A stretch of 64,000 bases of DNA from assembly GCA_965230585.1 (NCBI GenBank), contig CBDDLF010000007.1, forward strand, positions 68,188-132,187, in the 5' to 3' direction. Positions 3,709 through 60,700 of this stretch are shown here, in pieces. The stretch's first letter is position 1. The number at the start of each line of letters is the position of its first letter. The notes below the pieces were generated by a model. That model saw only the letters and a list, made by a program, of their open reading frames with translations. It was not told the origin of the DNA and did not search any database. The stretch is from Crocinitomicaceae bacterium (GTDB taxonomy: Bacteria > Bacteroidota > Bacteroidia > Flavobacteriales_D > Crocinitomicaceae). The translations under genes were made by a program, and so were the position numbers.

Positions 3709-3736
3709 CCTCAAAAACTACCCGGCACCTTTTCAG
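3709..3736 (+). repeat. Single REP-like repeat copy (cctcaaaaactacccggcaccttttcag)
   Basis: Matches 24 of 28 positions of the 29-nt unit at 7460..7488. It overlaps the 3' end of the sigma-54 AAA+ remnant on the opposite strand. Confidence 0.7.
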
Positions 3737-6988: not shown

Positions 6989-7035
6989 CCAGGCCGCTTG
7001 CTTCACGGGCGGCCCGGCCGGTGAGCTTCAACTGG

Positions 7036-7081
7036 CCTCAGAAACTAGCTGGCCTCAGAAACTAAGTGGCACTTTTTCGGG
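7036..7081 (+). repeat. REP-like array, 2 degenerate copies
   Basis: cctcagaaactagctgg and cctcagaaactaagtggcacttttt, located between convergent genes. Confidence 0.6.
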
Positions 7082-7095
7082 CCCGGACTTTGGGC

Positions 7096-7344
7096 TCACC
7101 TAGGAACGGACAAACCCAGCTCCTCCGTGACCTGGCGAATTCTCCTCGCGGTACCGGTGTCCACCCCGGCTTCAGTGGCCTTGGTCATGATGCTCACCAG
7201 CACGCGCTTTTCCTCATCGTCCAGGTGGCCGTCCGCCTTCGCTAAGCCCAGCAAATAATTCAACTCGCTGACGTCGAGCTTGCCATCGTCGGTGAAGCAA
7301 CGAATGGATTCCACAGCGATCCTGAGATGTGAGCTGAGTGACAT
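7096..7344 (-). CDS. Small TerB-like protein
   Basis: DGKLDVSELNYLLGLAKADGHLDDEEKRVLVSIM fits the paired DG..E motif of TerB/DjlA-N-like domains. Confidence 0.5.
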   Translation of the reverse strand: MSLSSHLRIAVESIRCFTDDGKLDVSELNYLLGLAKADGHLDDEEKRVLVSIMTKATEAGVDTGTARRIRQVTEELGLSVPR

Positions 7345-7430
7345 GACGCCTCCTTGATCGAAGTTCGGGGCCTGAATGGATCTCCCACCTTGTGACTCTC
7401 ATACGCATCAACCCGCCATTTCATGCGCAG

Positions 7431-7530
7431 GTCTCAGCAACTACGTGGCACCTTTTCAGGTCTCAGAAACTACGTGGCACCTTTTCAGGTCTCACCTGTT
7501 CAGGGCTCAGAAACTACGTGGCACCTGGTC
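7431..7530 (+). repeat. REP-like array, 3 copies (two abutting 29-nt units plus one more)
   Basis: gtctcagcaactacgtggcaccttttcag (7431..7459) and gtctcagaaactacgtggcaccttttcag (7460..7488) abut. A third core lies at 7510..7526. The array sits in a divergent intergenic region. Confidence 0.9.
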
Positions 7531-11719: not shown

Positions 11720-11727
11720 TGCGACGG

Positions 11728-11790
11728 GGCACCCAGAAACGGGCACCCAGAAACTACTTGGCACCTTTTCGGGCCGGCACCTTTTCGGGC
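11728..11790 (+). repeat. REP-like array (1 good and 2 partial copies)
   Basis: The sequence is ggcacccagaaacgggcacccagaaactacttggcaccttttcgggccggcaccttttcgggc. Confidence 0.75.
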
Positions 11791-12013
11791 TCGGCTTTCG
11801 AGCTTTTGGAGGGCGTTTCGAGGGTCGTACCACGGCCAAGTCATCGAATGGCTGGAAGACGTGCTCCGGCATGTTAGGCGTGAGGCTATCGATCTATGGG
11901 AGCTGGCAAGCTTCCCCATGACCTGTCTGGACCGAGCCGATTTGCCGATGAGACTACCAAGATGCCCGATCCGTCTTCGACGGAGCCCTACGGCGAATCG
12001 AGCTGCTGGGCTC

Positions 12014-16459: not shown

Positions 16460-17068
16460 CTATTTCAGGCTGAGCTTCTGGGCAACGATGTAGACGTGCA
16501 GCTCGGGATATTGATCGTATTCTAGATGCCGACACACACATCCCGAGTCGGATAGGAGCTGCAAGATATTCGGAATACCGATCAAGCTGTAGTACATCGG
16601 GGGTCCCATGGCCGAGTCGGTTTTTTCCGTCGGCTCGTCCAAGCCCCCGGTGGTGAAGATAAATACACCTCCGGGGTTGAGACCCTGGCAGAGCTTGCTC
16701 AGCACGGGCTCCTGCTCCGCCAACGGAATATGCCAAATGCTGTCCCAGGCGGTGATGAAATCGTAGGTGCCAGGTAGTTTCCAACGACAGATATCCGCGT
16801 GGTGAAAGGTCACCGTCGAATGGCGCTGCCTGGCGAGCTCGATCATTCGGTCGGAGAGCTCAACCCCCTCCACCTCAAAGCCGTGGCCTTGCAAAAGATC
16901 GATAAATCGTCCACTGCTACCGCAGCCGACGTCCAATGCCCGCCCTTTCGATTCCACAAACGCCACGGCACGCTCGTGTTGCTCGATACCGTTTGTCCTA
17001 GGGAACTCGTCGCTATTCCAATGATCCGCGAGCTGATCGTAGCTCTCGGCAATGTCGTTGGGTTTCAA
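16460..17068 (-). CDS. Class I SAM-dependent methyltransferase
   Basis: The motif I region reads ALDVGCGSGRFIDLL. The preferred start is the TTG at 17068, 6 nt after AGGAGA. The start is uncertain, since the track start at 17131 is also TTG. Confidence 0.8.
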   Translation of the reverse strand: MKPNDIAESYDQLADHWNSDEFPRTNGIEQHERAVAFVESKGRALDVGCGSSGRFIDLLQGHGFEVEGVELSDRMIELARQRHSTVTFHHADICRWKLPGTYDFITAWDSIWHIPLAEQEPVLSKLCQGLNPGGVFIFTTGGLDEPTEKTDSAMGPPMYYSLIGIPNILQLLSDSGCVCRHLEYDQYPELHVYIVAQKLSLK

Positions 17069-17167
17069 GAAGGATCTCCTGTTCCGCAAAGGCGATCTGC
17101 GTGCTGGATCGGCTCGCCCGAATTGTCTCAAAAGAGGTCCGCGGAGTGCGAATCAGCAGAAAATCAC

Positions 17168-23149: not shown

Positions 23150-24901
23150 ATGTTGACGAGCTTCTCACGTTCCAAAAACAGCATGCGAGCGGCAGCGGCG
23201 GCAATCACGTTGCTCGCGTCGCTGCTCGGTACCAGCTCCATCCCGGCCGGCACCGCGCCGATCACCCATCCGATTGTTTTCGTGCAATACCCGAGCCCGG
23301 AGAATCTCCAGGCGCCGATCCGGGGCAATCTCTTGCGCTTGGATCCGGACGGCAGCGTCCACGCCTTGACCGATCGGACCGACGCTGCGGTGAGGGATCC
23401 AGAAGTCTCTTGGGACGGTACCCAGGTGGTCTTTTCCATGCGCATCGGTGCCGACACCGCGACTTGGCAAGTTTGGGAGGTGGGTGTCGATGGGACCGGG
23501 CTGCGGAAAGTCAGCCAAGACCCGGCCTACAACGATCTCGACCCCAGCTACCTGCCCGACGGCCGCTTGATCTTCACCACCGATCGCCTGCGCTGGTCCG
23601 ACGGTTATGAAAATGTGCCGGCCACTCAGCTCGCGGTCATGGGCTCCGACGGCCTCAACGTGGAGATGCTGAAGGTCAACCCGTCGGGACACTCGAACCC
23701 TCTCGTCGGCAGCGACGGCATGGTCTACCTCACCCAATGGGATTTCCACGACCGTCGGACCACCATGTCCGACGAGGAAGACGAGACTTTCGACGTCAAC
23801 CGATTCCTCTTGTGGAAGGTCTTCGCCGACGGCAGCGGTCTCGACCATCCAGCCTTCGGCGCCCACACTATCGGCGACTTCACCCCGGGTTATGTGGAAA
23901 TTCGAGAACGACCGTCCGCGCCGGGTACCTTCGTCGGCGTGCTGGGTTCGGAAGATACCCAGGAGGTCACCAGCTTCTCCCCGGATCGACTGATTTTCGT
24001 GCCAGGTACTTTCCTGACCTTCTTCGGTGCCGACATTGTGTTGATGCAACCGCAGGCGAACCAAGATCTCGACCAGCCCGTCTCCTTGACCTCCGGCGAT
24101 GAGATGGAGGGCACTTGGCGCTCACCCTTACCCCTTGAGGACGGTCGGATCGTCGCGACATTTTTTCCGGAAGAATTCGAAGGGGAGGAGCCACCGGCCC
24201 AGCTGTGGATGATGAACAGCGACGGATCCAACAAGACCCTTCTGCACCATCAGGACAGCCATTGGTTGATCCAACCGGTGGAGGTCGTGGCTCGGACGCC
24301 CCCGACGCTGCTGGACGGCCAGATGCGGCCGGAGTATCCCTATGCCTTGATCAACGCCCTCGACGTCACCCTGCGCAGCAATGACGGTCAGAGCCATCCG
24401 GCTCCCGGCGAGGTGGTCGCGGTGCGCGTGCTACGGGAGGATGTGCGCACGCCGAACGACCACGACGCCCAGCTGGACAGCGGTGGCTCCAACGTGTTCC
24501 AAGCTTGGGACGACCCCGATACCGTGGAGCTGGGCACCGCCCCCGTGGCACCGGACGGCTCGTTTGCGGTGGTCGTTCCCGCCGATACTCCCATCACTTG
24601 GGAGCTGTTGAGCTCCCAAGGAAACGTGGTGGTGCGAGAGCGCTTCGGCACCGAGCTGCGTGCCGGTGAGGTCCGCACCTGCGCAGGTTGCCATGCGCCC
24701 CACGACGGCACCCAAGGCTCCACCTCGAATATGGCGTTGGCGTCGCCCACCAACTTGAGCGGGCAGGAAGTGGATTTAGACAATAACGGCGTTGTCGATT
24801 TGCTGGAAAATCTATGCGAGGTCATCCCCTCCGCCTGCGGCACAGGGGTGATTTTCAATGACGGCTTCGAATCGGGAAATACCTCCGCCTGGAACGGTTA
24901 G
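23150..24901 (+). CDS. Secreted TolB/PD40-like beta-propeller protein with one CXXCH motif and a DGFESGN..W tail
   Basis: An AGGAGG RBS precedes the start and a signal peptide is present. The propeller part reads DPEVSWDGTQVVFSMR...YLPDGRLIFTTDR. The haem motif is CAGCHAPHDG. The protein ends VIFNDGFESGNTSAWNG. Confidence 0.8.
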   Translation: MLTSFSRSKNSMRAAAAAITLLASLLGTSSIPAGTAPITHPIVFVQYPSPENLQAPIRGNLLRLDPDGSVHALTDRTDAAVRDPEVSWDGTQVVFSMRIGADTATWQVWEVGVDGTGLRKVSQDPAYNDLDPSYLPDGRLIFTTDRLRWSDGYENVPATQLAVMGSDGLNVEMLKVNPSGHSNPLVGSDGMVYLTQWDFHDRRTTMSDEEDETFDVNRFLLWKVFADGSGLDHPAFGAHTIGDFTPGYVEIRERPSAPGTFVGVLGSEDTQEVTSFSPDRLIFVPGTFLTFFGADIVLMQPQANQDLDQPVSLTSGDEMEGTWRSPLPLEDGRIVATFFPEEFEGEEPPAQLWMMNSDGSNKTLLHHQDSHWLIQPVEVVARTPPTLLDGQMRPEYPYALINALDVTLRSNDGQSHPAPGEVVAVRVLREDVRTPNDHDAQLDSGGSNVFQAWDDPDTVELGTAPVAPDGSFAVVVPADTPITWELLSSQGNVVVRERFGTELRAGEVRTCAGCHAPHDGTQGSTSNMALASPTNLSGQEVDLDNNGVVDLLENLCEVIPSACGTGVIFNDGFESGNTSAWNG

Positions 24902-24953: not shown

Positions 24954-24955
24954 TG

Positions 24956-25027
24956 CTCGGAAACTACGTGGCACCTTCCTCGGAAACTACATGGCACCTT
25001 CCTCGGAAACTACGTGGCACCTTCCTG
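24956..25027 (+). repeat. REP-like array, three abutting 23-nt units
   Basis: ctcggaaactacgtggcaccttc occurs three times (24956, 24979, 25002). The middle unit has one G to A change. Confidence 0.95.
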
Positions 25028-25523: not shown

Positions 25524-25573
25524 GGATCGGCTTCTTGCCCGGAGAGATCCTTTACCCGGCCTCAGAGACGGCC

Positions 25574-25627
25574 TAGGAAACTACGTGGCACTTCTGGCCG
25601 CCTCAGAAACTACATGGCACCTTCTAC
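25574..25627 (+). repeat. REP-like array, 2 copies
   Basis: taggaaactacgtggcacttctgg and cctcagaaactacatggcaccttctac. Confidence 0.85.
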
Positions 25628-26283: not shown

Positions 26284-26291
26284 TACTCAAT

Positions 26292-27266
26292 TCAAGCCTG
26301 GTTATTCGGTACCTGTTCCATCGCTGAGATGAGCCAAGCCCACCCGTTTTGCTCAGCGAGAGCAGATAGGTCGCCCCACAGCTTCGTTCGAAGAGGATCA
26401 CCTACGATGGATTGGGTGGAATAATCACCCAGATGCAATCGCCCGTGTTCCGACGCTGTCGCCCATCTCTTGAGAAAGAGTCCGAATTGATCAGCCGCGG
26501 CCTCGGCGTCCCCTGCCCGCAGGGAGCAATACGCCCGCTGCTCTAGAAGGGCCTCATAGCGCCACGCCAGCGACCCCTCGAAAAACGACGGATCTACCTC
26601 ACCGTAGGCATCGGCAGCGTCCCTCCAACGCTCAAGGTCCTGCAAGCAATGGGCACGATAGAGCAACGCCCATGGGTGCTTGGGATCCGCCTCGGTGGCC
26701 TGCTCGAAATATCGAAGCGCTTCAGGAATGCCTCGGCTCGAGTCTTCGTAGGCCAAGGATCCGAGCAGATACAAAACATCCGCGCTCCCGGGGGCAAGCC
26801 GGGCTGCCTCAAAGGCCGCGGACCAAGCCGTGGCCAAGATCCTCCGCCTGGGCTCCGCTTCGTCGTCTCGAAAGAAGCCCTCCGCAAAAAATTTCGCGCA
26901 CACCGCGCGCGAATGGTGGACCCATGGGTCCTCGTCGTCGAGACCCAATGCCGCCTCGTAGATCCGGTCGAGCGCCAGCCACTCTTCCAAGCTCAACGAA
27001 GTCACCTCGTGCTCCAAAAACATGGCCAAGAAGCGCAGACGCTCTTGAGCCGGCAGGTCGACTTCGCCGGTTTGGCGCAAATAGGCCGTTAGATCCAAGC
27101 GGGCAACTCCCGCCACTTCCTTGGCCCGGATATTTGATTCGAGCCAATCCTCCATCGCGACGCGCGGGTCGACGGCCGCTTTGGAATGCTTTTGGTCAAG
27201 ACGGTGCCGAAGCTGCGCTCGATCTCGCTGATTCTTCAAACCGGTAAGCACTTGTGATCGCGGCAT
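26292..27266 (-). CDS. Hypothetical TPR-like helical repeat protein
   Basis: ALRYFEQATEADPKHPWALLYRAHCLQDLERWRDAADAY is TPR-like. The rest is unassigned. Confidence 0.55.
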   Translation of the reverse strand: MPRSQVLTGLKNQRDRAQLRHRLDQKHSKAAVDPRVAMEDWLESNIRAKEVAGVARLDLTAYLRQTGEVDLPAQERLRFLAMFLEHEVTSLSLEEWLALDRIYEAALGLDDEDPWVHHSRAVCAKFFAEGFFRDDEAEPRRRILATAWSAAFEAARLAPGSADVLYLLGSLAYEDSSRGIPEALRYFEQATEADPKHPWALLYRAHCLQDLERWRDAADAYGEVDPSFFEGSLAWRYEALLEQRAYCSLRAGDAEAAADQFGLFLKRWATASEHGRLHLGDYSTQSIVGDPLRTKLWGDLSALAEQNGWAWLISAMEQVPNNQA

Positions 27267-27376
27267 CTAGATTCCTCATTTCAATTGGAGAACAATTTAT
27301 CAGCTTAGGTCTATAAATCTACTGGAGATGGGTCTTGTCCGCAAAGTCGTCTAGGGACCCGAGCACGGCTCCCCTA

Positions 27377-27531
27377 GACGCACCACTTCTGGAAACTACG
27401 TGGCACCTTTTCCATGGATGCGCTTCTGGAAACCGCTTCTGGAAACTACGTGGCACCTGTTCGGTGGACGCACTTCTGGAAACCACTTCTGGAAACTACG
27501 TGGCACCTTTTCCATGGATGCGCCGACGCAC
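27377..27531 (+). repeat. REP-like array, 3 perfect cores in nested repeats of about 50 nt, directly upstream of the transposase-like gene
   Basis: cttctggaaactacgtggcacct occurs at about 27386, 27436 and 27486. The flanks ttttccatggatgcg occur twice. Partial units (cttctggaaacc) lie in between. Confidence 0.95.
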
Positions 27532-27645
27532 CGATCACGCAACTAATTTCGAGCCAGTGCAGAATTCGAGAGAGTTTTTCCGTCCAAGCTCTAGTAGGAG
27601 CGCAGTAGGTGTCTCTGCGCCCGATTTACCAAAGGAGAGCTTGTT

Positions 27646-28611
27646 ATGCCACGAAACCCTCGCATCCACACCCAACTCGACGTTTTGGTCGAAGTCGTCA
27701 ATCGCACTATCCAGGGGCGATTTCTCATCAAACCCGGGCCCAGAATGAACGCCCTTATCGTCGGTGCGCTGGCCAAAGCCCAGCAACGCCACGCTGTGGA
27801 AATCCATGGGGGCGCCTTCATGAGTGGACACTTCCATCTCCTGCTGAGCTGCCGCACGGTCAAAGATCAAGCCGGCTTTATGCGGGACTTCACCCGCAAG
27901 CTGTCCATCGAAAGCGGCAAGCTCTACGATTGGGACGAGCCAACCTTCACCCGTCGCTACCGTCACACCGAGCTATCCGATGAGGCTGAGGCTCAGGTGT
28001 CCCGGCTCACCTATTGTCTACGCCACGGAACGAAGGAAAATCTCGTAGCCTCGCCACTTGATTGGCCCGGAGTAGCCTTCGCTGAAGCCTTGATCACCGG
28101 CGAGCCCCTAGCAGGAATCTGGATCGATCGCACTGCCTATGGGCGAGCACGAAATCGTGGAGAGAATGTCACCCTAGATGACTTCACAGAGCATCTGAGC
28201 CTCCATCTCAAACCCCTACCTTGCCATCGACATCTGAACCGCGACCAGCGGCGGTCGACGGCTTTGGAGCTGGTTCGAACGATCGAAGAAGAGACCACGG
28301 CGCGTCATCGATCGGAAGGCACTCGTCCTCTAGGGGCTGAGGCCGTCCTCTCCGCCGATCCTCACGATCGACCAACAGAACCCAAATCGTCACCCAAACC
28401 CCTATTCCACGCCTTCTCCAAAAGAGCATGGCACGAGATGCGCGAGGCATTGTCTTTCATCCTCGCCGCTTATCGTGAAGCGGCCGAGCGGTTTAAAAGT
28501 GGCGACCTTACAGTCGAATTCCCAGAAAACACCTTTCCACCCGCTCGATCCTTCATCGAGCCGCTTCTGTCGACAAACACTCCTTCTCCGGCGCTTCTCC
28601 AGCCTGGATGA
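27646..28611 (+). mobile_element. HUH Y1 (IS200-like) transposase gene, RAYT-like
   Basis: The HUH motif is SGHFHLLL. The catalytic Tyr region is YCLRHGTKENLVASPLDWPG. An AAGGAGAG RBS precedes the start. No second IS gene and no obvious terminal inverted repeats are present. Repeat family copies lie upstream (27377..27531), and a degenerate one lies downstream (ttacatggcacc at 28753..28764). Confidence 0.7.
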
Positions 28612-28859
28612 GGTTCCCTTTACCCTTCGCCGGTGGTCTCACAAATCGGAACGCTTATGGCCAGATTCTGGGTTGGGGGAGGTGTGTTTTTCCCAGCAAT
28701 TGAAAGCCATGAGCAAACTAAATACCTCCTCTTCAATATTTACAACTCATATTTACATGGCACCAACGGGCCCCCCCTTCAGAATATAGACCCGAGAATC
28801 ATCGAATCGTTCAGTCGGACTCTTCGTGGACAAAGCGAGTAGACAAGGAGACATGCATC

Positions 28860-38615: not shown

Positions 38616-38849
38616 AAACCAGGAGGGCGAGGCCGACGTTGCAAGGAGGATCCGGCGCACCAGAAGCTTCGAAGCCGTGCGATCTCGCAGCCATCGAGAA
38701 GCTTGGCAGAAAAACCGACAGCATCGCGACCGATTGCCGGAAAAAGGATCGAAGAAGAAAAAAGTGAATAGAAGTCGTCATGTGCTCGTAACATGATGAG
38801 CTGCCCTTCTTGGGTTCCTATTCACAATTCAACTCTGGAGAATCTGTAT

Positions 38850-41800
38850 ATGATTCGAGCGCTTTGCCATGTTTTATTTTTTTGTCCCATGTTCCTTTCC
38901 TTCCTTCTCGCAGAATCAGCCGCGGCCCAGCCCCAAGAGCCTCTCCGCGCGATATTTCTGAACATCGAGGCCCCCAACTCTTCACCCCAGCTGGCCGTGC
39001 ATTGGACCGGCGACCCCAACGCTCGACTATCCGTTTGGCTCGATCTCGACGGCGATGGCCGTGGGCAGGACTCCGAGCTAGTGATTCGAGACGTGTTGTT
39101 GCGGGACGAAATGAAGGTTTTTGAGCTCGAAGCTTCATTCGGAACCCCCGCATTGGAGCCACATTCCCAGGCCCTATTTCGAGTGACTTTGCACGACGAG
39201 GTCGTGAACGAATTTCTACAGCTGATTCGCGAGCCGGCTCCCTCCGTCGGCCCCGGTACGGGACCAGAACACTGTGAATGGTCGCCAGACTTCTACCAGC
39301 GCGATTTGGACGGCGCAGTGGAAAGCAGTGCTATTTTCGACGACGGTACCGGCCCAGCCCTCTTTGTGGGCGGCTCGTTTGGATCCGTCAATGCCACCAA
39401 GATCTCAAATATTGCTAAATGGGACGGCACTAGCTGGCATCCACTGGGCTCCGGCACGAACGGTACGGTCTACGCTCTCACGGTCTACGACGACGGCAGC
39501 GGTCCCGCACTCTATGCCGCGGGATCTTTCACCGAGGCCGGAGGCGTCAGCGCGAATCGCATCGCACGCTGGGACGGCACCGCTTGGCATCCCCTCGGAC
39601 AAGGTGTGGGCACCTTCAGGATTCATAAACTGACCGTCTATGACGACGGTAGCGGTCCCGCACTCTACGCGGGTGGCTATTTCTCCGAAGCGGGAGGGGC
39701 CGAGGCCCACAACATTGCTAAGTGGGACGGCGCGGCTTGGTCGGCGGTCGGCTCGGGAGTGAACGACCAAGTCCATGATCTACACGTTTTTGACGACGGC
39801 AACGGATCCGCCCTCTATGTGGGTGGCCGATTCTTTGCAGCGGGAGCGACCGGCGCCCAACATCTCGCAAAATGGGACGGATCGGCTTGGTCGGCGGTCG
39901 GCTCGGGCAGCGACCAACCCATTCGAGCCCTCCACACTTTCGATGACGGCAGCGGGCCGGCTCTCTACATCGGAGGAGAATTCACCACCGTCGACGGCGT
40001 GGCCGCCAGTCGGATCGCCAAATGGGACGGCACACAGTGGTCGTCCCTAGACGTTGGGGCAAACGGCTGGGTCTACGATCTGGCCGTCTACGACGACGGC
40101 GGCGGCTCGGCTCTTTACGCCGTAGGCAGCTTCCCGAACGCGGGCGGAATTTCCGCCGGGCGGGTCGCCAAGTGGGACGGCACACAGTGGCATTCGCTGA
40201 ATTCGCAGATTGAAAACACGGTCTACCACCTAAATGTCTTCGATGACGGCAGCGGATCAAAGCTCTATGTCGGAGGCCTTTTCACGATTCCCGGCGAGGC
40301 CAACCACATCGCGACGTGGGACGGCTCTGCTTGGAGCGCGCTCAGCAGCAGCCCCCCCACGGGCTTGGGGCTAAGCTCTGTCGTTGAAGATTTCGCGTTT
40401 TTCGACGACGGCAACGGACCCGCGCTCTATGCCGCGGGACACTTCCGCACCGCCGGCGGTGTCGCTGCCCAGCGCTTGGCAAAGTGGGACGGAACGAGCT
40501 GGCATGCACTGGGATCCGGCATAGACAATGCTGTCCTCGCTTTGGCGGTTTTCGACGACGGCAGCGGCCCCGCACTCTATGCCGGCGGCTTTTTCTTCGA
40601 GGCAGGTGGGGTACCCGCCAAGAGCATCGCCAAATGGGACGGCAGCGCGTGGTCACCCCTCGGCTCGGCACTCCAGGGCTTGATTTCGGACCTAGTGGTG
40701 TTCGACGACGGTGGCGGACCCGCACTCTACGCCAGCGGCCACTCTCTCTTCCTCAATGGCTCGGTCGCCGGGCCCATCGTCAAATGGGACGGTAGCTCGT
40801 GGTCAACTCTGGACGCGAGCCTGGGCTTCGGTGTCGGCACGGGAGTGAGCTCCTTGGCAGTGTTTGACGACGGCAACGGCCCTGACCTCTATGCTGCCGG
40901 CAACTTCACAACGATAGATGGAGTCCAAGCCGCCAACGTCGCCAAGTGGAACGGAACGAGCTGGTCCAGCTTGGGCGGTGGAACGAACAATCGGATCCGT
41001 CGTCTGGCAACCCTCGACGACGGCAACGGTCCTGCACTCTACGTGGGCGGCGACTTCACCTCTGTCGATGGCATCGATGCCCATCGAATCGCAAAATGGA
41101 ACGGCACCGACTGGTCTGCGATGGGCGCAGGTTTCGATAATTACGTCTTCGCCTTGGGTAGCTTCGACGACGGATCCGGTCCTGCCATTTATGCCGGAGG
41201 CTTCTTTCGATCTTCAGGTGCCACGCCGGTGAATCGACTCGCCCGATGGGACGGGTCTCAATGGCAGCCTATGGGCGCGGGCGTCAACGGGCCCATCGAC
41301 GCCATGATGCCCTACGACGACGGCCGTAGATCCTCTTTCTATATCGGCGGCAGCTTCACTGCTGCGGACGGATTGCCTTCCATGAGAGTCGCCAAATACA
41401 CGTGCTTTTCACCACCGAGCCTCAGCCTGCCCGCGCTCACTCACACCGCAGTCTCATCGTGGGTGGAGATTCCCATCGAGCTCCAAACCGGCGGTCGATC
41501 CCTGGATTCCGCCACATTCTCCATCGACTACGATGAAACTTGCCTCAACCCTGATCTCAACGGCGACGGCGTTCCGGACCACATCGAGCTCCAGCTTCCT
41601 GAGCTTCTTGAGGTCGACATCGCCTTCGACCCCCTCGACACCGACGGAGAGCTGGATCTGACCGTGAGCCTTCTCGAAGGTGCGGGCGAAGGCTTTCCCA
41701 ACCGCGGCGCAGACGACGGCTTGCCCGACGGTGCTCTGCTGACCATCGGATTCCAGGCCACCTGCTCGGCGGCTCCCGGCTCGTCCACCGACGCCGCCGT

Positions 41801-42623
41801 GGATTTCTCCCTCGACCCCGAGGTGGGTTTTGGAACGAGCCTGGGACAGAACATCTCCGGCAACGTCACCAACGGCGTGGTCCGGATTTGGTCGGGAGAC
41901 CCGGGGGATTGCAATGCCGACGGCATGGTCGATTCCGGCGATCTCGAAGCCACGGCGCTCGAAATTTTCGACGCCGACGGCGAAGCTTGGCTCGACGCCC
42001 CGGGCGGTACCTTCTCCGGAAGCCCCGTGGGCTGCGATGCCAATGCCGACCTTCAGATCCGAGCGGCGGACCTCGTCTGTGCGAATCTGCTGAGCACCGA
42101 AACCGCGTGCGATTCCAGCGGCGATCTCCAGAGCCAAAACGAGCTTGAGATCTCGACCCGTTGGCGGGAGGGCGTGTCGTGGATTCGTCTTGAGGTGACG
42201 TCGGAGCAGCTCGAGCCGAATAATCCCATCGGCGGTTTTGCCCTTTCCCTCGACTTCGACCCGGCCCTTTTCGATCTCGGCTCGGTCGACGCGGACGCCG
42301 ACGGCGTGCCGGACCTCCTGCGTTTTCCCCAGGGTCAGCCTGGATCGGTCATCGTGCTCTGGAGTGATAGCGACACCGACGGCGAGCTCGACCTCGCCAT
42401 CGCCGATCTCGACCAGCTGCCCCTTCCCGAAGGGATCGTCGTAGAAGTCGGCGTGCCCGCCAATCATCTTTTCGAAGGTGGGATCACCGCCTCCCAAGAT
42501 CCAGCCCCATCGTTCGCCTCACCGCACGGCGCGGATTTGACCTCCAGCGTCCAGATCCGATCGGGCATCTTCGTCGACGGTTTCGAATCCGGCGACACCT
42601 CCCAGTGGATCGGCTCTGACTAA
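38850..42623 (+). CDS. Giant secreted protein: about 14 tandem propeller-blade repeats of about 57 aa, cohesin/dockerin-like region, DGFESGDTSQW tail
   Basis: The preferred ATG at 38850 follows GGAGAA and gives the signal peptide MIRALCHVLFFCPMFLSFLLAESAAA. The repeat reads IAKWDG.(A/S)W..LG.G....V.AL.VFDDGSGPALY.GG.F..AGG. The protein ends GIFVDGFESGDTSQWIGSD. Confidence 0.85.
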   Translation: MIRALCHVLFFCPMFLSFLLAESAAAQPQEPLRAIFLNIEAPNSSPQLAVHWTGDPNARLSVWLDLDGDGRGQDSELVIRDVLLRDEMKVFELEASFGTPALEPHSQALFRVTLHDEVVNEFLQLIREPAPSVGPGTGPEHCEWSPDFYQRDLDGAVESSAIFDDGTGPALFVGGSFGSVNATKISNIAKWDGTSWHPLGSGTNGTVYALTVYDDGSGPALYAAGSFTEAGGVSANRIARWDGTAWHPLGQGVGTFRIHKLTVYDDGSGPALYAGGYFSEAGGAEAHNIAKWDGAAWSAVGSGVNDQVHDLHVFDDGNGSALYVGGRFFAAGATGAQHLAKWDGSAWSAVGSGSDQPIRALHTFDDGSGPALYIGGEFTTVDGVAASRIAKWDGTQWSSLDVGANGWVYDLAVYDDGGGSALYAVGSFPNAGGISAGRVAKWDGTQWHSLNSQIENTVYHLNVFDDGSGSKLYVGGLFTIPGEANHIATWDGSAWSALSSSPPTGLGLSSVVEDFAFFDDGNGPALYAAGHFRTAGGVAAQRLAKWDGTSWHALGSGIDNAVLALAVFDDGSGPALYAGGFFFEAGGVPAKSIAKWDGSAWSPLGSALQGLISDLVVFDDGGGPALYASGHSLFLNGSVAGPIVKWDGSSWSTLDASLGFGVGTGVSSLAVFDDGNGPDLYAAGNFTTIDGVQAANVAKWNGTSWSSLGGGTNNRIRRLATLDDGNGPALYVGGDFTSVDGIDAHRIAKWNGTDWSAMGAGFDNYVFALGSFDDGSGPAIYAGGFFRSSGATPVNRLARWDGSQWQPMGAGVNGPIDAMMPYDDGRRSSFYIGGSFTAADGLPSMRVAKYTCFSPPSLSLPALTHTAVSSWVEIPIELQTGGRSLDSATFSIDYDETCLNPDLNGDGVPDHIELQLPELLEVDIAFDPLDTDGELDLTVSLLEGAGEGFPNRGADDGLPDGALLTIGFQATCSAAPGSSTDAAVDFSLDPEVGFGTSLGQNISGNVTNGVVRIWSGDPGDCNADGMVDSGDLEATALEIFDADGEAWLDAPGGTFSGSPVGCDANADLQIRAADLVCANLLSTETACDSSGDLQSQNELEISTRWREGVSWIRLEVTSEQLEPNNPIGGFALSLDFDPALFDLGSVDADADGVPDLLRFPQGQPGSVIVLWSDSDTDGELDLAIADLDQLPLPEGIVVEVGVPANHLFEGGITASQDPAPSFASPHGADLTSSVQIRSGIFVDGFESGDTSQWIGSD

Positions 42624-42720: not shown

Positions 42721-42950
42721 GTCTCAGAAACCCGTCCGGAAACAACCAGGCACCTGCCTGGGGGCTGAAACTTGCTGCCCGAGGAAACCGTGCCCACGGA
42801 AACTACGTGGCACCTGCCTGAAGGCCGTCCGGAAAGGCCGTCCGGAAAGGCCGTCCGGAAATCACGGGACACCTGTTTCGAAGCCGTCCGGAAACTACAT
42901 GGCACCTCCCTGGAGGCTTCCCGGAAACTTCGCCAGACCTTCGGCTGCCG
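42721..42950 (+). repeat. Long degenerate REP-like array
   Basis: Two good cores are present: ggaaactacgtggcacctgcc at about 42798 and ggaaactacatggcacctccc at about 42889. Several decayed ones are also present (ggaaacaaccaggcacctgcc, ggaaatcacgggacacctg), along with ccgtccggaaagg repeats. Confidence 0.8.
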
Positions 42951-43122: not shown

Positions 43123-43139
43123 CTGGCATGCCCATTGCT
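43123..43139 (+). promoter_or_regulatory. Sigma-54 promoter candidate (CTGGCAT-GCCCA-TTGCT)
   Basis: TGGCAT is at 43124..43129 and TTGCT at 43135..43139. The GG-N10-GC spacing is exact. The site is 80 nt upstream of the ATG at 43219. Confidence 0.6.
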
Positions 43140-43218
43140 CTTTCCGAGGGTACGTCACAGCCCGCGTCAGGGTTTACGACCTTCGTTTTACTTTCCACTT
43201 TCTGAAAGGGACAAACGC

Positions 43219-46200
43219 ATGCAATTCCGTTGGAAATTCCTTAACTGTCTCGTTCTCTCGGCGATCACCGTCTCGTCGGTAGCCTTCGGGGCGGCACCCT
43301 CTGTTAACCGTCCGTCGCCTTTCCCGAATTACACGGTTGGTGACCTCGCGACTGTGATCATCTCCACCAATCCCGCGCAGGCCAACGCCCCAGTATATCG
43401 CTTCCGCTACAAAAACGGCCAGCCCGATGGTGATCAGCCCACACACATCGGCAATACCGGTGCCGATGGACGTCTCGCAATCGAAAACTTGCCGCTCGGC
43501 TTGGGCAATATTGGCGACTATACAAACGAGCAATTCGCCGTCGGTAGCCCGACGGGACAACGATCGAGCTCCATCAGCTACAGCATCCATGCAGCCAGCG
43601 CGCCGGATTCTTCCAGACCTTGGCCGTATCCGGATTATGAGATCGGCGAGCCGGCGACCAACATCATCACCACCAGCCCGGCCCAGGCGAATCAACCAGT
43701 CTACCGCTATCGTTACAAAAACGGCCTGCCCGACGGTCAACAGGGCATCTTGATCGGCCACACCAATGCTCAGGGATCGCTGACCATCCAAGCCACGCCC
43801 ACCGCGGCCGAAATCGGCCACTACACCATCGAGCGCTTCGCCGTCGGCACCGTGAGTGGCCCGAAGTCCAGCTCCAACAACTACTACGTGCATGCAGCGA
43901 ATGGGCCGTCGGCTGTCCGCTTTGCTCCGTTCCCGAGCTACGAGGTCGGAGATACCGCTGTGCTCGATATTTTCACGTCTCCCGCCCAGGCCAATCAAAA
44001 GGTTTATCGCTATCGTTATAAAGACGGCTCGGCCGACGGCAACCAGCCCACCTTGATCGGCATCACCAACTCCCTCGGTAGGCTGCGCAACACCTATGTG
44101 CTTGAGCAGAGCGATATCGGCACCTATTCCAGCGAACGCTTCGCCGTCGGCACTCCTACAGGTCCGACGTCAACATCCTTGAATTTTGTGGTCAGTAGCG
44201 CTGAACAGTCTCCGGTGGCTCCCACTGCAGAACGTCCCGCTCCCTTCCCGGATTACCAAGTAGGAGACACGGCCAGGCTGATCGTCACCACCGATCCGCC
44301 GCAGGCCGGGCAAGCGGTATATCGATACCGATTACGGGACGGACAACCCGACGGCGCCCAGCCGACCCACATCGGCAATACGGACGCATCCGGTGTTTAC
44401 GACATCAGCCTGCCGTTGTCGGAATCCGAAATCGGCACCTATTCCGATGAACGCTTCGCTGTCGGCGACCCTAGCGGACCAACCTCCGCTCCCAACACCT
44501 ACACGGTCTCCGAGCGGACGGGCCCAACCATTGATTCCATTTCCATCGATCGCTTGGCCCAAGGTGTGGTGACCCACGTGTTGGTGCAGGGCGAGAACCT
44601 CAACGGCGCATCGGTGTGGGTCGATGGTGCCGGCACACTGCCCACCGCATCTGTGTCCAGCGAGGCCGCGGACGGTACGTGGCTCAACGTGGCCATCGAC
44701 ACCACCGCCGCTGGGATCCGAGGCTATTTCACCCTACTGGTCAGCCAGGACGTCGATAACTACGACCGCGCCGCCTTTGAGGTCGCGCCACCGGGACCGG
44801 CGATCAACGGCTTCACCCCGCCGTATCCCAATCGGGGCCAGTCCTATTTGTTGGTGATTTTCGGCCAGAATCTAGGCGAGGCCACCGTGACCAGCAGCAA
44901 TCCAGACTACGTGCAGGTGTTGGCACCGGGAAGCGGTGAGGCGTCCGTGCACGCCCAGCCCAACAATCCGCCTCCAGTCGACACAGACGTCGACGGAGCG
45001 ATCCAGGGCATCTTGCAGGTCGCGGCGAATGCCCCGTTGGGTCCGGTTCAGCTGTTGGTCGAGAATTCCCAGGGCGCCACAGCCGTCACCCTCAACATCA
45101 CCGACGGCGGACTGGCAATGTTCGCAAACGTCAACCAGATCAACCTCACAGAGAGGGCCACCGGCAAAGCTGGACGTTCTCCTGAGCTGGTCCCAGACCT
45201 GATGGTGCAGGACTTCCACCTAGACCATCAGCTCACTTTCTCCAAAACCGGCCGAATGGAGCCGCACGCGGATTGCGCCGGCAGCGCATCATTTCGAGCC
45301 TTCAAACAAGAAGCCAAGGTTTACGCGCTCAAAGACACTGGCGAAGCTTTGACCTGGGCCAGCCTATTACTGGGAGTCCCCCAGGATTTCAGCGTGCTGA
45401 CGGTGGCCGCCTACATCGACGCCGAAGCTCGCCTATTCTGGAATTGCGATCCACCGTGGGACGAATCCCAGCTCGATTGGCGTATTTCCCTCGGTTTCGA
45501 GGTCGTGGGCCTCTTCAGCCTGGAGCTGACCGTTCGTCCCGACAACGGTCGCATCATCATCATGAGGGAAGCCCAGAGCATTTTCGATCGATTCGATTTC
45601 GGTCGAATCGGGCAGTCGGACGACTGCGTGGATATCTCGTCCGAGCCCTATGACCCCTTGAATTTCTCCGGCACTCGCCAGTTCCAGCTCACCCAATCCC
45701 GCTGTTGCCCGGGCGAGGTGCCGATCAGCTTCGCAGCGTCCATCTTCCAAGCATCACCGGTGGCCTCCGCAGACCTGATCGCCAACGAAGCCGTGGTCAT
45801 GAGGACCGAGCCCGAGGAAGAGGACTGCCCGTGCTTCGCCAACGACGACAGCCCCAGTCAATGCCCGTTCAATACCCTAAAAGTCCAAGAAGTGTCCTTC
45901 GAGCAGGACATATCCATTGTGAAAGATCAGAGAAACAGTCTTACACCCATCACGGATCCCGTTTGGATCAATCACAACGGCGAAACAGCACCGGAAAAGA
46001 ACGAGCCGGTCGCTTATATGCGGAATCAACAACTCGCCGTCAAAGCCAAATTCAGCATCAGCCCAGCCCTGGAAGACCCGTTCCCCGTCACTTTCCGAGC
46101 CAAGGGTCCGGACAATATGGTTTTTTGGAGCCAAGAGATCCAGATGGTCGGAAAACAAGTGACCGTTCCCCTGGTGTCGGACATATTGGCCCCCAACCAC

Positions 46201-47100
46201 ACCAAGCACTACAAGCCGATGACACTGACTTGGGAGTATTGCGAGCAGGATCCGGTCAACTGTGTGGACGACTCGGATTTCTTCATGGCAGGCCAAACTC
46301 GGCATGAGGTCTACTTGACCCTTGACCACACACCGACGAACGTCTTTTTGAGCGTGCTGGCCCTATCGATCAACGCGGGCGGCGCCACAACCCGGGACCA
46401 AGCCGCTTGGGACGCTTGGACGAATTTCATGAACCTGGATGTGACCACCTGGGACGACCGAAAGCTCTTCTACTATCGGCAGGGTGTAGGTTTCCAACAG
46501 GCCTGCACTACGGTTGAGCAACTTCTGATCGGCACCGGAGACGGGGGTTGCGATGCCTTTGCCAAGCTCTTGAAGAGAGTGCTTGCAGTGCACGGTGTCG
46601 CTTCTACCATCAATAAGGTGGCCGTGAGAGACAGCTGCCGAGTCGTAGGCGACCAATTGCTAGGTGATTGCTGGTTCCTCGTAGGAAACTTCAACTTCTG
46701 GCGCGAGTCCGAGCCAAGCGCGCCAGAGTACAAATGGAGGATGAACCTCTTCAACGAGGGCGTTGGCCTGGGAATGGTTCCAGCCCCTCCCCACCACAAA
46801 TTCGGCGACCTGGAAAGCCAGACCGGGATTCCGGGGCAGAACAGCCCCATGCCTTCGGAGAAGGTTTTTGGTGAGCACTATGTGCTCTACGTGCCGGACC
46901 TCACCAGCTACGGGTTCCCCGTCTACCTGGATCCCAGCTACGGAACGCACTACTTCAACGAGCTCGATTTCGAGCTTGGAGCCGTAGTCGGATACGGTAC
47001 GACTATCGACAGTCCCCGGATCCAGGTCAGGAAGCCGAGACCCGGCGAGGGTAATATTCGTTTCATACCGCAGTTTTTCAACCAGATCGATAAGGAATAG
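43219..47100 (+). CDS. Large secreted protein: four repeats of about 100 aa, IPT/TIG-like domains, transglutaminase-like (papain-fold) C-terminal domain
   Basis: The ATG at 43219 gives the signal peptide MQFRWKFLNCLVLSAITVSSVAFG. The repeats read PFP.Y.VGD......T.PAQAN..VYRYRYK.G.PDG.QP..IG.T...G......IG.Y..ERFAVG. A Cys/His/Asp set lies in transglutaminase-like context (GDGGCDAFAKLLKRVLAVHGV, GEHYVLYV, VYLDPSYG). Confidence 0.8.
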   Translation: MQFRWKFLNCLVLSAITVSSVAFGAAPSVNRPSPFPNYTVGDLATVIISTNPAQANAPVYRFRYKNGQPDGDQPTHIGNTGADGRLAIENLPLGLGNIGDYTNEQFAVGSPTGQRSSSISYSIHAASAPDSSRPWPYPDYEIGEPATNIITTSPAQANQPVYRYRYKNGLPDGQQGILIGHTNAQGSLTIQATPTAAEIGHYTIERFAVGTVSGPKSSSNNYYVHAANGPSAVRFAPFPSYEVGDTAVLDIFTSPAQANQKVYRYRYKDGSADGNQPTLIGITNSLGRLRNTYVLEQSDIGTYSSERFAVGTPTGPTSTSLNFVVSSAEQSPVAPTAERPAPFPDYQVGDTARLIVTTDPPQAGQAVYRYRLRDGQPDGAQPTHIGNTDASGVYDISLPLSESEIGTYSDERFAVGDPSGPTSAPNTYTVSERTGPTIDSISIDRLAQGVVTHVLVQGENLNGASVWVDGAGTLPTASVSSEAADGTWLNVAIDTTAAGIRGYFTLLVSQDVDNYDRAAFEVAPPGPAINGFTPPYPNRGQSYLLVIFGQNLGEATVTSSNPDYVQVLAPGSGEASVHAQPNNPPPVDTDVDGAIQGILQVAANAPLGPVQLLVENSQGATAVTLNITDGGLAMFANVNQINLTERATGKAGRSPELVPDLMVQDFHLDHQLTFSKTGRMEPHADCAGSASFRAFKQEAKVYALKDTGEALTWASLLLGVPQDFSVLTVAAYIDAEARLFWNCDPPWDESQLDWRISLGFEVVGLFSLELTVRPDNGRIIIMREAQSIFDRFDFGRIGQSDDCVDISSEPYDPLNFSGTRQFQLTQSRCCPGEVPISFAASIFQASPVASADLIANEAVVMRTEPEEEDCPCFANDDSPSQCPFNTLKVQEVSFEQDISIVKDQRNSLTPITDPVWINHNGETAPEKNEPVAYMRNQQLAVKAKFSISPALEDPFPVTFRAKGPDNMVFWSQEIQMVGKQVTVPLVSDILAPNHTKHYKPMTLTWEYCEQDPVNCVDDSDFFMAGQTRHEVYLTLDHTPTNVFLSVLALSINAGGATTRDQAAWDAWTNFMNLDVTTWDDRKLFYYRQGVGFQQACTTVEQLLIGTGDGGCDAFAKLLKRVLAVHGVASTINKVAVRDSCRVVGDQLLGDCWFLVGNFNFWRESEPSAPEYKWRMNLFNEGVGLGMVPAPPHHKFGDLESQTGIPGQNSPMPSEKVFGEHYVLYVPDLTSYGFPVYLDPSYGTHYFNELDFELGAVVGYGTTIDSPRIQVRKPRPGEGNIRFIPQFFNQIDKE

Positions 47101-57757: not shown

Positions 57758-60700
57758 GTGAATCGCCCTCTTCTGTCCCTCATTGCAATCGCCCTGTTGA
57801 CGCCACCAGTCTTTGGTGACGTGCTTCCTTGCACCGGCGGCGCCTGGTCGGCATTGCCCGGCAGCGACATGCTCACGGCCTCGCCGACTGAATTCGTCAG
57901 CTTCGACGACGGCAGCGGTCCGGCCATCTTTGCGGCCGGTGCTTTCGGTGATCCCAAACCCGTCGCGAAATGGGACGGGACTGCTTGGTCGCTCATGGGG
58001 CCGACCTCACACGGCCAATCGGTGGCCGTCTTCAACGACGGCAGCGGAGCGGCCCTCTACGCCGGAACTTGGGAAGCGGGAATCCAAAAGTGGGACGGCG
58101 CGGTGTGGTCGGCCGTGCCCGGCACCTTCAGCGGAAGCGGTCCCACGGCGATGGCCGTCTTCGACGACGGCAACGGCTCAGCCCTCTACGTCGGCGGTAG
58201 GTTCGCCACCATCGACGGCCTGACGGTGAACGGCATCGCCAAATGGGACGGCTCGGCTTGGTCGGCCCTTTCCGGACCCATGGGCACCGGTCTCACGGAC
58301 CCTTCGTTCGTGATTGTCGAAGGGATGACGGTCTTCGATGACGGCAGCGGTCCGGCGCTCTACGTGGGTGGACGATTCACCACCGCCGGTGGCGTGGTGG
58401 CCGGCAACCTCGCCAAGTGGGACGGCTCGGCTTGGTCGGCGCCCGCGGGTCTCAATGATCTGGTGTTCGCGCTCGAAGTCTTCGACGACGGCAGCGGCCC
58501 CGCTCTCCACGCCGCCGGCAGATTCCTCGTCGACGGCAGCCGCGTGGCCAAATGGGACGGAGCGACTTGGTCGGGCCTAGGCTCGACATCCGGTGACGAT
58601 ATCAACGACCTGATCGTCTTCAACGACGGTCGAGGCGCAGCGCTCTATGCGGCCGGCTCGATCGGCACGGTGAGCGGGGCTCTGGTCAACAACGTCGCTC
58701 GGTGGGACGGTGAGGATTGGTCAGCCCTCTATGGGCCGTCCGAAATCGGCACGGACGATCGGGTCTTTGCGTTGGGCGTCTTTGACGACGGCGGAGGCCC
58801 GGCCCTCGTCGCCGGCGGCTCTTTCACCACCGCGGGTGGCACGGCAGCGCCGTTCGCGGCGAGATATTCCTGCGCCTTCGGCACCGCGGCAGACCATTGC
58901 AACACGGAGAACGGCACTTGGGGACCGGTTTTTGCCGGGCCGGGACCGAGCTACGACCTCAAGGCGTTGGCCACCTTCGACAGCGGCTCCGGTCCGCAGA
59001 TCTACGGCGGCGGCGAGTTTTCCTCGATCGACGGCGTGGCGCGAAACGGGCTCGGCCGGTGGACCGGAGCGGAGTGGGAATCCGTCAACGGCGGGGTTCA
59101 GGACAGCTACGGGGATCCCGGCGAGGTCCGGGAGCTCATCGTCTTTGACGACGGCGGGGGTCAGACACTCTTTGCCGGTGGCTACTTTGAAATCGCCGGT
59201 GGTGTTCCGGCGATCAACATCGCGAAATACGACGGCATGACGTGGTCCGCCTTGGGGAGTCCCGATCTGGACGACGGCGTGGAGGTCATGGCGATCTTCG
59301 ACGACGGCGGAGGCCCAGCCCTCTACGTCGGCGGCTATTTCACCACCGCCGGCGGGGTGACCGTGAACGGCATTGCCAAATGGGACGGCGCGGCTTGGTC
59401 GGCCCTGACCGATGCGGGCGGATCGGGGGTCACCACCAGCCTCGGGACCGGCAACGTCTACGCCATGACGGTCTTTGACGATGGGAGCGGACCGGCCCTC
59501 TATGTCGGAGGATCCTTCACCACCGCCGGTGGCGTCACTGCTCACGACGTCGCGAAGTGGGACGGCACGGCTTGGTCGGCTTTGGCCGGCGGGACCGGCA
59601 GCATTCCGGACAGCGTTCTCGCGTTGACCGTCTTTGACGACGGCGGCGGTCCTGCGCTCTATGCCGGTGGTGATCTCTCGACTCTCGGCGGGGTGAGCGT
59701 GAGCAACATCGCGAAATGGGACGGCACCGCTTGGTCGAAGCTGGACGGCCCGGCGGGAGACGGCACCGATGATCAAGTGTATAGCCTGTCGGTTTTCGAC
59801 GACGGCGGAGGGCCGGCGCTCTACGCCTCCGGTAGCTTTTCCACGGCGGGCGGTGTGACGACGGGTCGGGTGGCCAAGTGGAACGGCACCGCTTGGTCAG
59901 GGGTGTCGGGTCCCAACGAAGCTTGGGTCACGGTGCTGGCGACCCTGGACGACGGCGGCGGTCTCGCCCTCTATGCCGGTGGAACCTTCGACACGGCCGG
60001 CAGCGTCGTCACCGGCGGCTTGGCCAAATACGACGGCTCGGCGTGGTCGGCTTTGGCAGCACCGGCGTCCGGCGTCAACCAAGCCGTCTCGGCATTGACC
60101 GCATTCGACGACGGCAGTGGCTCGGCCCTTTACGCCGGTGGCTCCTTCACTACCGCCGGCAACATCCTCGCTAATCGCGTGGCGCGCTGGGATGGTGCCG
60201 CGTGGAGCGCCCTCTCGGGTCCTTCGGACAACGGCATGGACGATGCCGTGCTCGCTTTGGTGAGCTTCGACGACGGTGGCGGCCCGGCCCTCTATGCCGG
60301 CGGCTCCTTCACGAGCGCGGGGGGAATCGCCGCAAATCACATCGCGAAATGGGACGGCACAGTGTGGTCTGCCCTGGCGGGGCCCTCTGGCACCGGCACC
60401 GACGGCACGGTATCCGCCCTCGCAGTTTTCGATGACGGCGGCGGCCCAGCGCTCTACGTCGGTGGATCCTTCACCGCGGCTGGAGGCATCGCCGCAAACC
60501 ACATCGCGAAATGGGACGGCACGACGTGGTCAGCTCTCTCCGGCCCCGGTGGCAACGGACTGGACGGCACCGTTCACGCCCTCGCCGCCTTCGACGGAGA
60601 GCTCTACGTCGGCGGCTCTTTCACGACCGCAGGGGGTGAAACCGTGAATCACGTCGCCAAGTGGGACGGCACGGCGTGGTCCGCCTTATTTTGCCCCACG

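Follow-up and report, generated by a model that had tools for sequence, protein, structure and literature searches.

How short intergenic repeats are spread through a bacterial chromosome, and by which enzyme, is the question raised by a stretch of contig CBDDLF010000007.1 (Crocinitomicaceae bacterium, assembly GCA_965230585.1, positions 68,188 to 132,187). The whole stretch of 64 kb, referred to below as the window, carries a transposase-like gene (27646..28611, plus strand, 321 aa) directly behind an array of a short repeat that is also found elsewhere in the window. The spread of repetitive extragenic palindromic (REP) repeats is unresolved, even in E. coli, and every mechanistic model of it invokes, to our knowledge, a single-copy enzyme that recognises a hairpin. 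A sequence-only reading of the window had proposed that the gene encodes a protein like the REP-associated tyrosine transposases (RAYTs) and is the candidate mobiliser of the repeats. Gene and repeat are associated in relatives as well, and paralogs that differ in protein sequence differ in their repeat accordingly; therefore, the enzyme is a legitimate candidate mobiliser. That it mobilises its cognate repeats is the best explanation of the evidence and in our judgement rather probable, mobilisation itself being what we infer.

The enzyme and its associated repeats

The translated gene contains both the HUH motif (GHFHLLL) and the tyrosine motif (YCLRHGTKENLVASPLDWPG) that the sequence-only reading had pointed out. 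Full-length homologs of ~300-330 aa number 178, and the two histidines (H62 and H64 of HFH) and the tyrosine (Y123) are invariant in 28 homologs with identity down to 41%. The tyrosine motif reads YCLRHG in the window and Y-x-L-x-[NHQ]-[GSC]-x-K-E as the consensus of these 28 homologs, and the motifs of the family can be written as [SGN]HFH and Y-x-L-x-[NHQ]-[GS]-x-K-E-x-L-V...DWPG. Proline is never seen in this alignment, and the Y---NP signature is therefore absent. A search of the family profile against the PDB returned ISDra2 TnpA (E=1.3e-4) and E. coli TnpA-REP (E=2e-3). H62 and H64 align with HMH of E. coli TnpA-REP and HVH of ISDra2 TnpA, and hhalign places Y123 on the catalytic tyrosine of E. 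coli TnpA-REP, with the HUH motif, a conserved W and Y-x3-N-x-x-K-x-x-L-V...DWP in register. The AlphaFold2 model (pLDDT 89, pTM 0.86) has TnpA-REP bound to the REP hairpin (4er8_A) as its top Foldseek match (TM 0.72, 153 columns, E=1.8e-5), and the TnpA structures of IS608 and ISDra2 (2xm3, 2vjv, 2a6m) follow below it at TM ~0.65 over 115 columns. No match to the protein was obtained in PHROGs or in a single-sequence search of the PDB, and Pfam at E<=1 returned Y1_Tnp alone, no helix-turn-helix (HTH) or DnaA_C-type C-terminal domain being matched; some more distant homologs carry precomputed PF01797 matches. Homology and the predicted model thus support a Y1 HUH (TnpA-Y1) superfamily enzyme, distant from the RAYTs and longer than they are, whose fold and alpha-D helix motif are nonetheless nearest to RAYT/TnpA-REP.

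Behind the catalytic domain, residues ~150-305 form a strongly conserved domain with invariant W159, R162, P192, G230, H255 and FP..FPP, to which none of the PDB matches listed corresponds. When this domain was searched alone against 1.84 billion representative proteins, 1450 clusters (50% identity) were recovered. Among the full-length matches listed it always lies at ~150-305 in proteins of ~300-400 aa (one of 521 aa), and it therefore follows, in one polypeptide, an N-terminal region no shorter than a Y1 domain. The ~170-aa domain appears to be specific to the family and always fused to the catalytic domain.

The core of the repeat, GGAAACTACGTGGCACC (17 nt), is present upstream of the gene in three perfect plus-strand copies (27391-27407, 27441-27457 and 27491-27507). 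The number and orientation of these copies had been given correctly by the sequence-only reading, and its distance of 115-270 nt was roughly right, their ends lying 139-239 nt before the ATG. The decayed copy that it had placed about 140 nt downstream is there as well, 'ttacatggcacc' beginning 142 nt past the stop codon. With up to three mismatches allowed, the window contains 18 core matches against 0.15 expected, a number reached in 0 of 100 shuffles, and an independent repeat search recovers a 24-nt family, cCTC(A/G)GAAACTACGTGGCACCTT. Dispersal can be seen from the presence of seven intergenic core sites but only one copy of the Y1 gene in the window. All seven sites are on the plus strand regardless of the orientation of neighbouring genes, and the arrays have periods of 23, 29, 33 and 50 nt, while the three minus-strand matches all fall within coding open reading frames (ORFs). 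The plus strand of the window has a negative GC skew; across loci, in pieces as short as 20 kb, repeat orientation was not seen to follow the local skew. Two arrays folded as single-stranded DNA gave z ~0 on both strands, with no hairpin or palindrome. The three departures from textbook REPs that had been noted, namely weak palindromy, tandem arrangement and a single direction, are real. The tetranucleotide GTAG, which had been likened to that of E. coli REPs, does lie inside the reverse complement of the core but is not conserved, since related repeat classes read GTTG or GTAG.

Several further observations concern the core itself. One of the minus-strand matches (16766-16782, 16 of 17 positions) lies in frame in a SAM-methyltransferase gene (16460..17131, minus strand) and encodes WKLPGTY; it is improbable by chance under a uniform model, yet the surrounding coding segment is normal-looking. 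A reading of the core as a sigma-54 promoter (TGGCAC-N5-TTGC) was rejected by inspection, the -12 GC being missing at the correct spacing. In JGI metagenome contigs the exact 17-mer has 19 matches, all single (L034-L052), whose flanks suggest unrelated, mostly coding DNA; seven of them have a common flank, where the 17-mer would encode GNYVAP. No array and no Y1 gene were noted on these contigs, on which no search for the gene family was made. Within the JGI collection, the core is not repeated outside the lineage.

The relation between gene and repeat was followed through relatives. A scan of one genome per species gave 30 loci from two metagenome-assembled genomes (MAGs), with ~18 matching loci in Thermoanaerobaculia bacterium Co_bin.310, 48-80% identical to the query, and ~12 in a second, uncultured MAG. 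In 27 relatives, among L001-L028, the unit has the same order: an upstream tandem array, the element CAGAAT-N15-CGTCC, a short hairpin with a Shine-Dalgarno sequence, the gene, a 3' block of ~75 nt and a TGGCACC-type motif. The gap between array and 5' element is 30-60 nt in these relatives, and that between 3' block and TGGCACC motif is 60-110 nt and of variable sequence. A forward TGGCACC-type motif is found at +135 to +170 in 19 of the 28 units (20 of 28 over the whole of +80 to +320 searched) and is never reversed, against a chance expectation that we estimate at ~0.06 per unit.

When a neighbour-joining tree of the proteins was compared with the flanking repeats, the repeat class was found to change with the clade. 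In clade A (the window, L001-L004 and L007) the upstream motif has its TGGCACC on the strand of the gene; L005 and L006 belong to clade A by the tree, and with the pattern used only their downstream motif was detected. The arrays of clade B (L008-L024) consist of GGTGCCAGGT(A/T)GATGTTC or GGTGCCACGTTGATATC, a related motif in the opposite orientation, and L028 has another, different repeat. Of the more distant members, L033 (49% identity) carries an unrelated tandem repeat, AACGAGAGGGTGACAGTCGGATTCGGGCGG, upstream and an inverted copy downstream, and in L031 (42% identity) TTTAGGTGGCACC is still present downstream. Recurrence, co-variation and fixed geometry argue strongly that the association is not a matter of chance and that the repeats are, as judged from these sequences, the cognate DNA of the enzyme. 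From the window alone, a coincidental adjacency of the gene to repeats unrelated to its protein would have some claim, as seven sites in 64 kb give, by our estimate, a chance of ~6% that one lies within 300 nt of a given gene. However, more than 20 paralogs show the arrangement, as do distant members, with clade-specific repeats and a fixed distance to the downstream motif, so that the comparison of tree and flanks effectively refutes coincidence, which we regard as extremely improbable.

These findings suggest that the gene is part of a REPtron/TIRtron-like unit, with its cognate repeat of 17-24 nt upstream and one more copy ~140 nt past the stop. A Y1 HUH enzyme, whose catalytic domain resembles that of RAYTs, would nick and rejoin single-stranded DNA. 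The protein would recognise a linear, non-hairpin core containing TGGCACC, at which one DNA strand would be cut and rejoined. Such cutting and joining would seed new cores, to be grown locally into unidirectional tandem arrays, and every diverged paralog would serve its own repeat variant. What we infer in this scheme is that the enzyme is catalytically active on the core, where and on which strand it cleaves, and that it is the agent that spreads the repeats.

Inheritance, duplication and turnover

At its end, one Co_bin.310 contig (L027) has the same gene order as window positions 28124-40000. At the nucleotide level the Y1 gene is 77.6% identical in its 3' part, the aminopeptidase gene 81% and the genes that follow 82-89%. 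Therefore, the window copy has a positional ortholog, in which the downstream motif is conserved too. It appears to have been kept in place since the two genomes diverged, a vertical, RAYT-like pattern. The repeats, on the other hand, turn over: past the gene ending at window position 36916, Co_bin.310 has four class-A cores (L027 8622-8760) and the window has an unrelated 1.8 kb, that is, an array was gained or lost at an orthologous site.

Other loci display duplication. Pairs within the same MAG are 98.8% (L005/L006), 98.7% (L023/L025), 97.3% (L001/L002) and 95.3% (L010/L011) identical over 1.17-1.43 kb, and the similarity stops sharply near -113/-140 and +75/+93. These four are the only pairs of at least 95% identity among the ~30 loci, the remainder being 48-87% identical. 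In L001 (9615-9884), a sigma-54-dependent activator-like ORF (GESGTGKE...ELFGSVKGAFTTR) breaks off in the core-like sequence that borders the Y1 unit on its left, and the rest of this gene was not found downstream, which suggests a truncation or rearrangement associated with the unit. The near-identical cassettes and the L001 truncation are features like those of an insertion sequence (IS).

These features introduce the possibility that the unit is itself an IS, in which a 1.2-kb cassette of 5' element, gene and 3' block copies itself and the repeats are landing sites or a by-product. Apart from the pairs and the interrupted ORF, the number of paralogs in the two MAGs speaks for it, as does the finding that the nearest Co_bin.310 paralogs (L001-L004) occupy other genomic contexts. 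The sequence-only reading had held that many identical copies with terminal structures would mark an ordinary IS; relatives do carry ~12-18 diverged paralogs and pairs of 95-99% identity, but terminal hairpins and inverted repeats are lacking. The genes next to the Y1 gene encode a TPR protein, an M1 aminopeptidase and a methyltransferase, none of them tnpB, and no TnpB is therefore present at the locus; no inverted repeats were found to bracket the window gene, whose flanking cores are direct instead. Both absences had been anticipated in the sequence-only reading. Moreover, subterminal hairpins are missing, the cassettes do not meet a core at a fixed position, the window copy has stayed in synteny since the genomes diverged, and most paralogs, at 48-80% identity, are unlike copies of an active IS. 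Repeat classes follow the protein clade and far exceed the genes in number, and gene conversion could also yield blocks of high identity. A self-copying IS is therefore considered unlikely. The 5' and 3' conserved blocks are confined to the flanks of family genes, whereas short repeats also lie kilobases away in several loci; therefore, solo arrays are not deletion derivatives of the whole unit.

The 3' module is duplicated in tandem in L006, L011, L012 and L016, with a variable 5' limit and a constant 3' limit just past TGGCACC, which would be what a site-specific event at this motif leaves behind. In L007 (1300-1650 and 1937-2023), a second, 5'-truncated paralog (from ...GIWIDRTGYY...) with its own 3' block lies directly 3' of the full-length gene.

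The stable inheritance of the window copy could instead point to a domesticated Y1 enzyme with a host role in regulation, chromosome structuring, or replication- or repair-linked processing of single-stranded DNA. The repeats would then be binding or operator sites, and arrays would grow by slippage rather than transposition. Indeed, arrays situated 50-170 nt 5' of the promoter-like element are where autoregulatory sites are expected, head-to-tail arrays with partial units are a product of replication slippage, and the extra C-terminal domain could be a DNA- or protein-binding module. Nevertheless, the catalytic His and Tyr are invariant family-wide, and identical cores are found at many unlinked intergenic sites with no common flanks, so that dispersal is required and slippage alone is insufficient. 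The presence and absence of an array at an orthologous site also disagrees with this explanation, and the many diverged paralogs with their own repeats resemble selfish diversification. Domestication is thus quite improbable in our view.

Several points weigh against mobilisation of the repeats by the enzyme. The profile searches that had been suggested as a check of Y1_Tnp/RAYT identity both fail formally, with 16 bits (E=0.014) against Pfam Y1_Tnp PF01797, under the gathering cut-off of 23, and 29.9 bits against NCBIfam NF047646 (REP_Tyr_transpos, the RAYT equivalog), for which the cut-off is 80; the E value of 4.3e-7 for the latter supports homology despite the score. Every structurally studied Y1 transposase recognises a hairpin, whereas the repeats here have none. 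The upstream array is direct in clade A and inverted in clade B, which is awkward for a fixed cis-acting end. Also, the duplicated cassettes of 95-99% identity stop at the 3' block and not at the repeats, and the junctions of partial units in arrays are inconsistent with one cleavage position; as they differ between repeat classes, no claim for a single position is made.

Anatomy of the locus and other features of the window

The coordinates of the unit and of the other core sites are collected in Table 1.

Table 1. Positions of the Y1 gene, its flanking elements and the core repeat sites in the window
Feature	Position	Strand	Remarks
Transposase-like gene	27646..28611	+	321 aa; N-terminal ~150 aa, Y1 HUH domain (H62, H64, Y123); ~150-305, C-terminal domain
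5' element CAGAAT-N15-CGTCC	27560..27585	+	constant spacing; nhmmer match spans 27556-27620
Short GC hairpin GCGCAG...CTGCGC	27600..27620	+	in presumed 5' untranslated region (UTR)
Shine-Dalgarno AAGGAG	27632-27637	+	after 5'-UTR hairpin
Conserved 3' block GGTGGTCTCACAAATCGGAA...CCAGATTCTGGGTTGGGGGAGGTGTG	28617..28693	+	~75 nt
Downstream core-like motif TATTTACATGGCACC	28750..28764	+	includes decayed copy TTTACATGGCACC at 28752-28764
Upstream tandem array	27382..27518	+	50-nt period; three perfect cores and extra half-units CTTCTGGAAAC
Solo array	24955..25024	+	three cores, 23-nt period, convergent intergenic region
Solo core pair	25572..25624	+	two cores
Two close arrays (7030-7076, 7428-7528)	7030..7528	+	four cores and partial units
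Single core	11727..11795	+	core at 11745; left half and right half each duplicated
Irregular array	42738..42929	+	3-4 cores, many isolated GGAAAC half-units
Lone degenerate core	3709..3732	+	one copy

The exact 5' element was found in the window and at 19 of the 52 fetched loci (~0.6 Mb of DNA), each time 5' of a family gene and nowhere else. It is a promoter-like element, with a putative promoter function, which we take to be similar to the -35 and -10 elements of promoters for extracytoplasmic function (ECF) sigma factors; a scan for consensus sigma-70 promoters and terminators found neither on the strand of the Y1 gene. In clade B the equivalent of the 5'-UTR stem runs up to the Shine-Dalgarno sequence, and some of the changes in it are compensatory: a single pair is GC in five cases, AU in five and UA in one. 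With the exception of this local stem in clade B, where there is some covariation, no consensus RNA structure was found for the entire 5' element or the 3' block, and conserved stems are limited to the small 5'-UTR hairpin and a 3-bp stem within the 3' block. In relatives the 3' block is the right-hand limit of recently duplicated gene cassettes. A pairing of this block with the coding region, which the repeat search had suggested, was rejected because the positions of the duplex are not conserved among paralogs.

In some clade-B loci (L010, L011, L012, L014-L021 and L024), a conserved Shine-Dalgarno sequence and ATG after the 5' element open a leader of ~100 nt before the main ORF. The leader may hold an upstream ORF of ~30 codons, the amino-acid sequence of which is not conserved. 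The main ORF has its own GGAGG in clade B, and in clade A the same ATG begins the main ORF. The distant locus L031 has an ORF of 72 aa before the family gene (2205-2423) and a SIR2_2-domain protein after it (3963-5927), a context that may be defence-island-like.

Directly 5' of the solo array at 24955, just past the stop of ORF 23150..24901, lies a hairpin (CAGCGGCTCAGAGCCGCTG; 24913-24952, plus strand) with a sub-threshold match to Rfam M23 RNA (24.9 bits against 41.2, E=0.14). It is probably just a terminator-like stem, and Rfam returned nothing else over 24500-29500. The product of ORF 23150-24901 (plus strand, 583 aa) matches Pfam HZS_alpha, the middle domain of the hydrazine synthase alpha subunit (E=5e-14), which is unexpected outside anammox bacteria and probably represents a generic beta-propeller-type domain. 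Three very large ORFs (38793..42623, 43135..47100 and 57758..61228) contain dozens of coding repeats of ~150-162 nt, located at 39300-41400, 47240-47620 and 57880-61070. The unit encodes ...FDDGSGPALYAGG.F...G....IAKWDG..W... and looks like that of a propeller-like repeat protein family; two of the three ORFs share 86% identity over their C-terminal ~220 nt (42429-42650 and 47597-47818).

Place among known Y1 systems

Quentin et al. 2018 (PMC6006769) recognised 3 classes and 12 subclasses of TnpA-Y1 proteins. The defining mark of class 2 (RAYT) is Y---NP. Hairpin REPs bearing a GT[AG]G foot flank five of the class 2 subclasses, and subclass 2.3, of ~325 aa, has NHYH and YVDLNP motifs, core insertions and no repeats (PMC6006769). 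The present system resembles the REPtron of E. coli TnpA-REP (PDB 4ER8) in its Y1 HUH catalytic domain, for which 4er8 is the best structural match, and in the alpha-D helix motif Y-x3-N-x-x-K-x-x-L-V...DWP. Also shared are a cognate short repeat that flanks the gene and is dispersed in intergenic regions, one repeat class per paralog, the lack of tnpB and, for the window copy, inheritance in synteny. In contrast, the repeats here are non-palindromic with no 5' GT[AG]G foot, and are strung head to tail in one direction instead of being paired as inverted copies (REPINs/BIMEs). The protein has Y---N(G/S) instead of Y---NP, an extra conserved domain of ~170 aa and a score under the NCBIfam equivalog cut-off, and there are up to ~18 paralogs per genome, some near-identical. 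The RAYT-type identity proposed in the sequence-only reading therefore stands in part: fold and helix motif are nearest to TnpA-REP, but with repeats that form no hairpin and no Y---NP the protein is not a member of the RAYT/REP family as defined.

TIRtrons are RAYT-like genes flanked by inverted repeats, some of them repeated genome-wide (Di Nocera et al. 2013, PMC3733652). Their proteins, the TIRYTs, mostly correspond to subclass 2.1 of Quentin et al., and all published sequences carry Y---NP and WSS motifs (PMC3733652). As in the present system, RAYT-like genes are flanked by repeats other than REPs, some TIRYT repeats are moderately abundant families in dimers or clusters, and several genes with different flanking repeats exist per genome, Acidobacteria included. 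Clade-B relatives even have inverted flanks, GGTGCCAGG...CCTGGCACC. However, the flanking copies of the window (clade A) are direct, not inverted, there is no GGGGWSAS motif, no C-terminal HTH (Bac_DnaA_C / HTH_23 / HTH_28) is matched, and both Y---NP and WSS are absent.

With the TnpA of IS200/IS605 elements (IS608, ISDra2; subclass 1.1), the family shares the HUH/Y1 chemistry, the near-identical copy pairs in relatives and the lack of terminal inverted repeats, and a target duplication is not expected. The 5'-UTR hairpin beside the Shine-Dalgarno sequence is reminiscent of the translational control of IS200 tnpA (PMC4513863), and copies in the window are on one strand, as a strand-specific mechanism predicts. 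On the other side, the protein is twice as long (321 aa against ~150 aa for the core-only TnpA) and has the RAYT-like Y---N...KE...LV...DWP rather than Y---Q. There are no subterminal hairpins and no tnpB, most copies are strongly diverged, and short repeats vastly outnumber the gene. Class 3 proteins, found in Acidobacteria and Planctomycetes, are of ~178 aa with NHVH and Y----Q, have weakly structured repeats and are described as intermediate between IS and REPtron; their genomes have several related genes and hundreds of atypical repeats with a CnGA foot and some secondary structure (PMC6006769). A phylum in common, several related genes per genome and atypical, weakly structured repeats are points of likeness, but the size, NHVH, Y----Q, CnGA foot and secondary structure of class 3 do not fit the present family.

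Therefore, the family is assigned neither to RAYT/REP, for which hairpin REP, Y---NP and equivalog score fail, nor to IS200/IS605, for which hairpin ends, core-only protein and tnpB fail. Judged by its sequences, it matches none of the published TnpA-Y1 class signatures compared, and yet shares their logic of a Y1 enzyme with a dispersed cognate repeat. The system is best described as a variant of the REPtron/TIRtron kind with linear, unidirectional tandem repeats, an added domain, many coexisting enzyme/repeat pairs, and both resident and IS-like behaviour.

The useful differences of this system are a linear tandem cognate repeat, an extra conserved domain and many diverged enzyme/repeat pairs per genome, which therefore provide natural specificity swaps for the way in which Y1 enzymes choose DNA. 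Coexisting pairs also offer built-in comparisons by which it could be decided whether such repeats are mobilised or only bound. The subfamily is large and most of its members escape Pfam; therefore, many of them have probably gone without annotation in Acidobacteriota-like metagenome genomes. As covalent DNA-protein tags, orthogonal HUH enzymes that recognise short linear sites would have practical uses too. A tentative and on balance doubtful extension is that a large unclassified Y1 HUH subfamily exists in which the C-terminal domain reads a linear motif and units are copied head-to-tail, with a dozen or more orthogonal pairs per genome. If true, REP-like repeats would proliferate here, as unidirectional arrays, in a way that has not been described for RAYTs or IS200, and the pairs would form a natural toolkit of sequence-specific nickase-ligases for single-stranded DNA.

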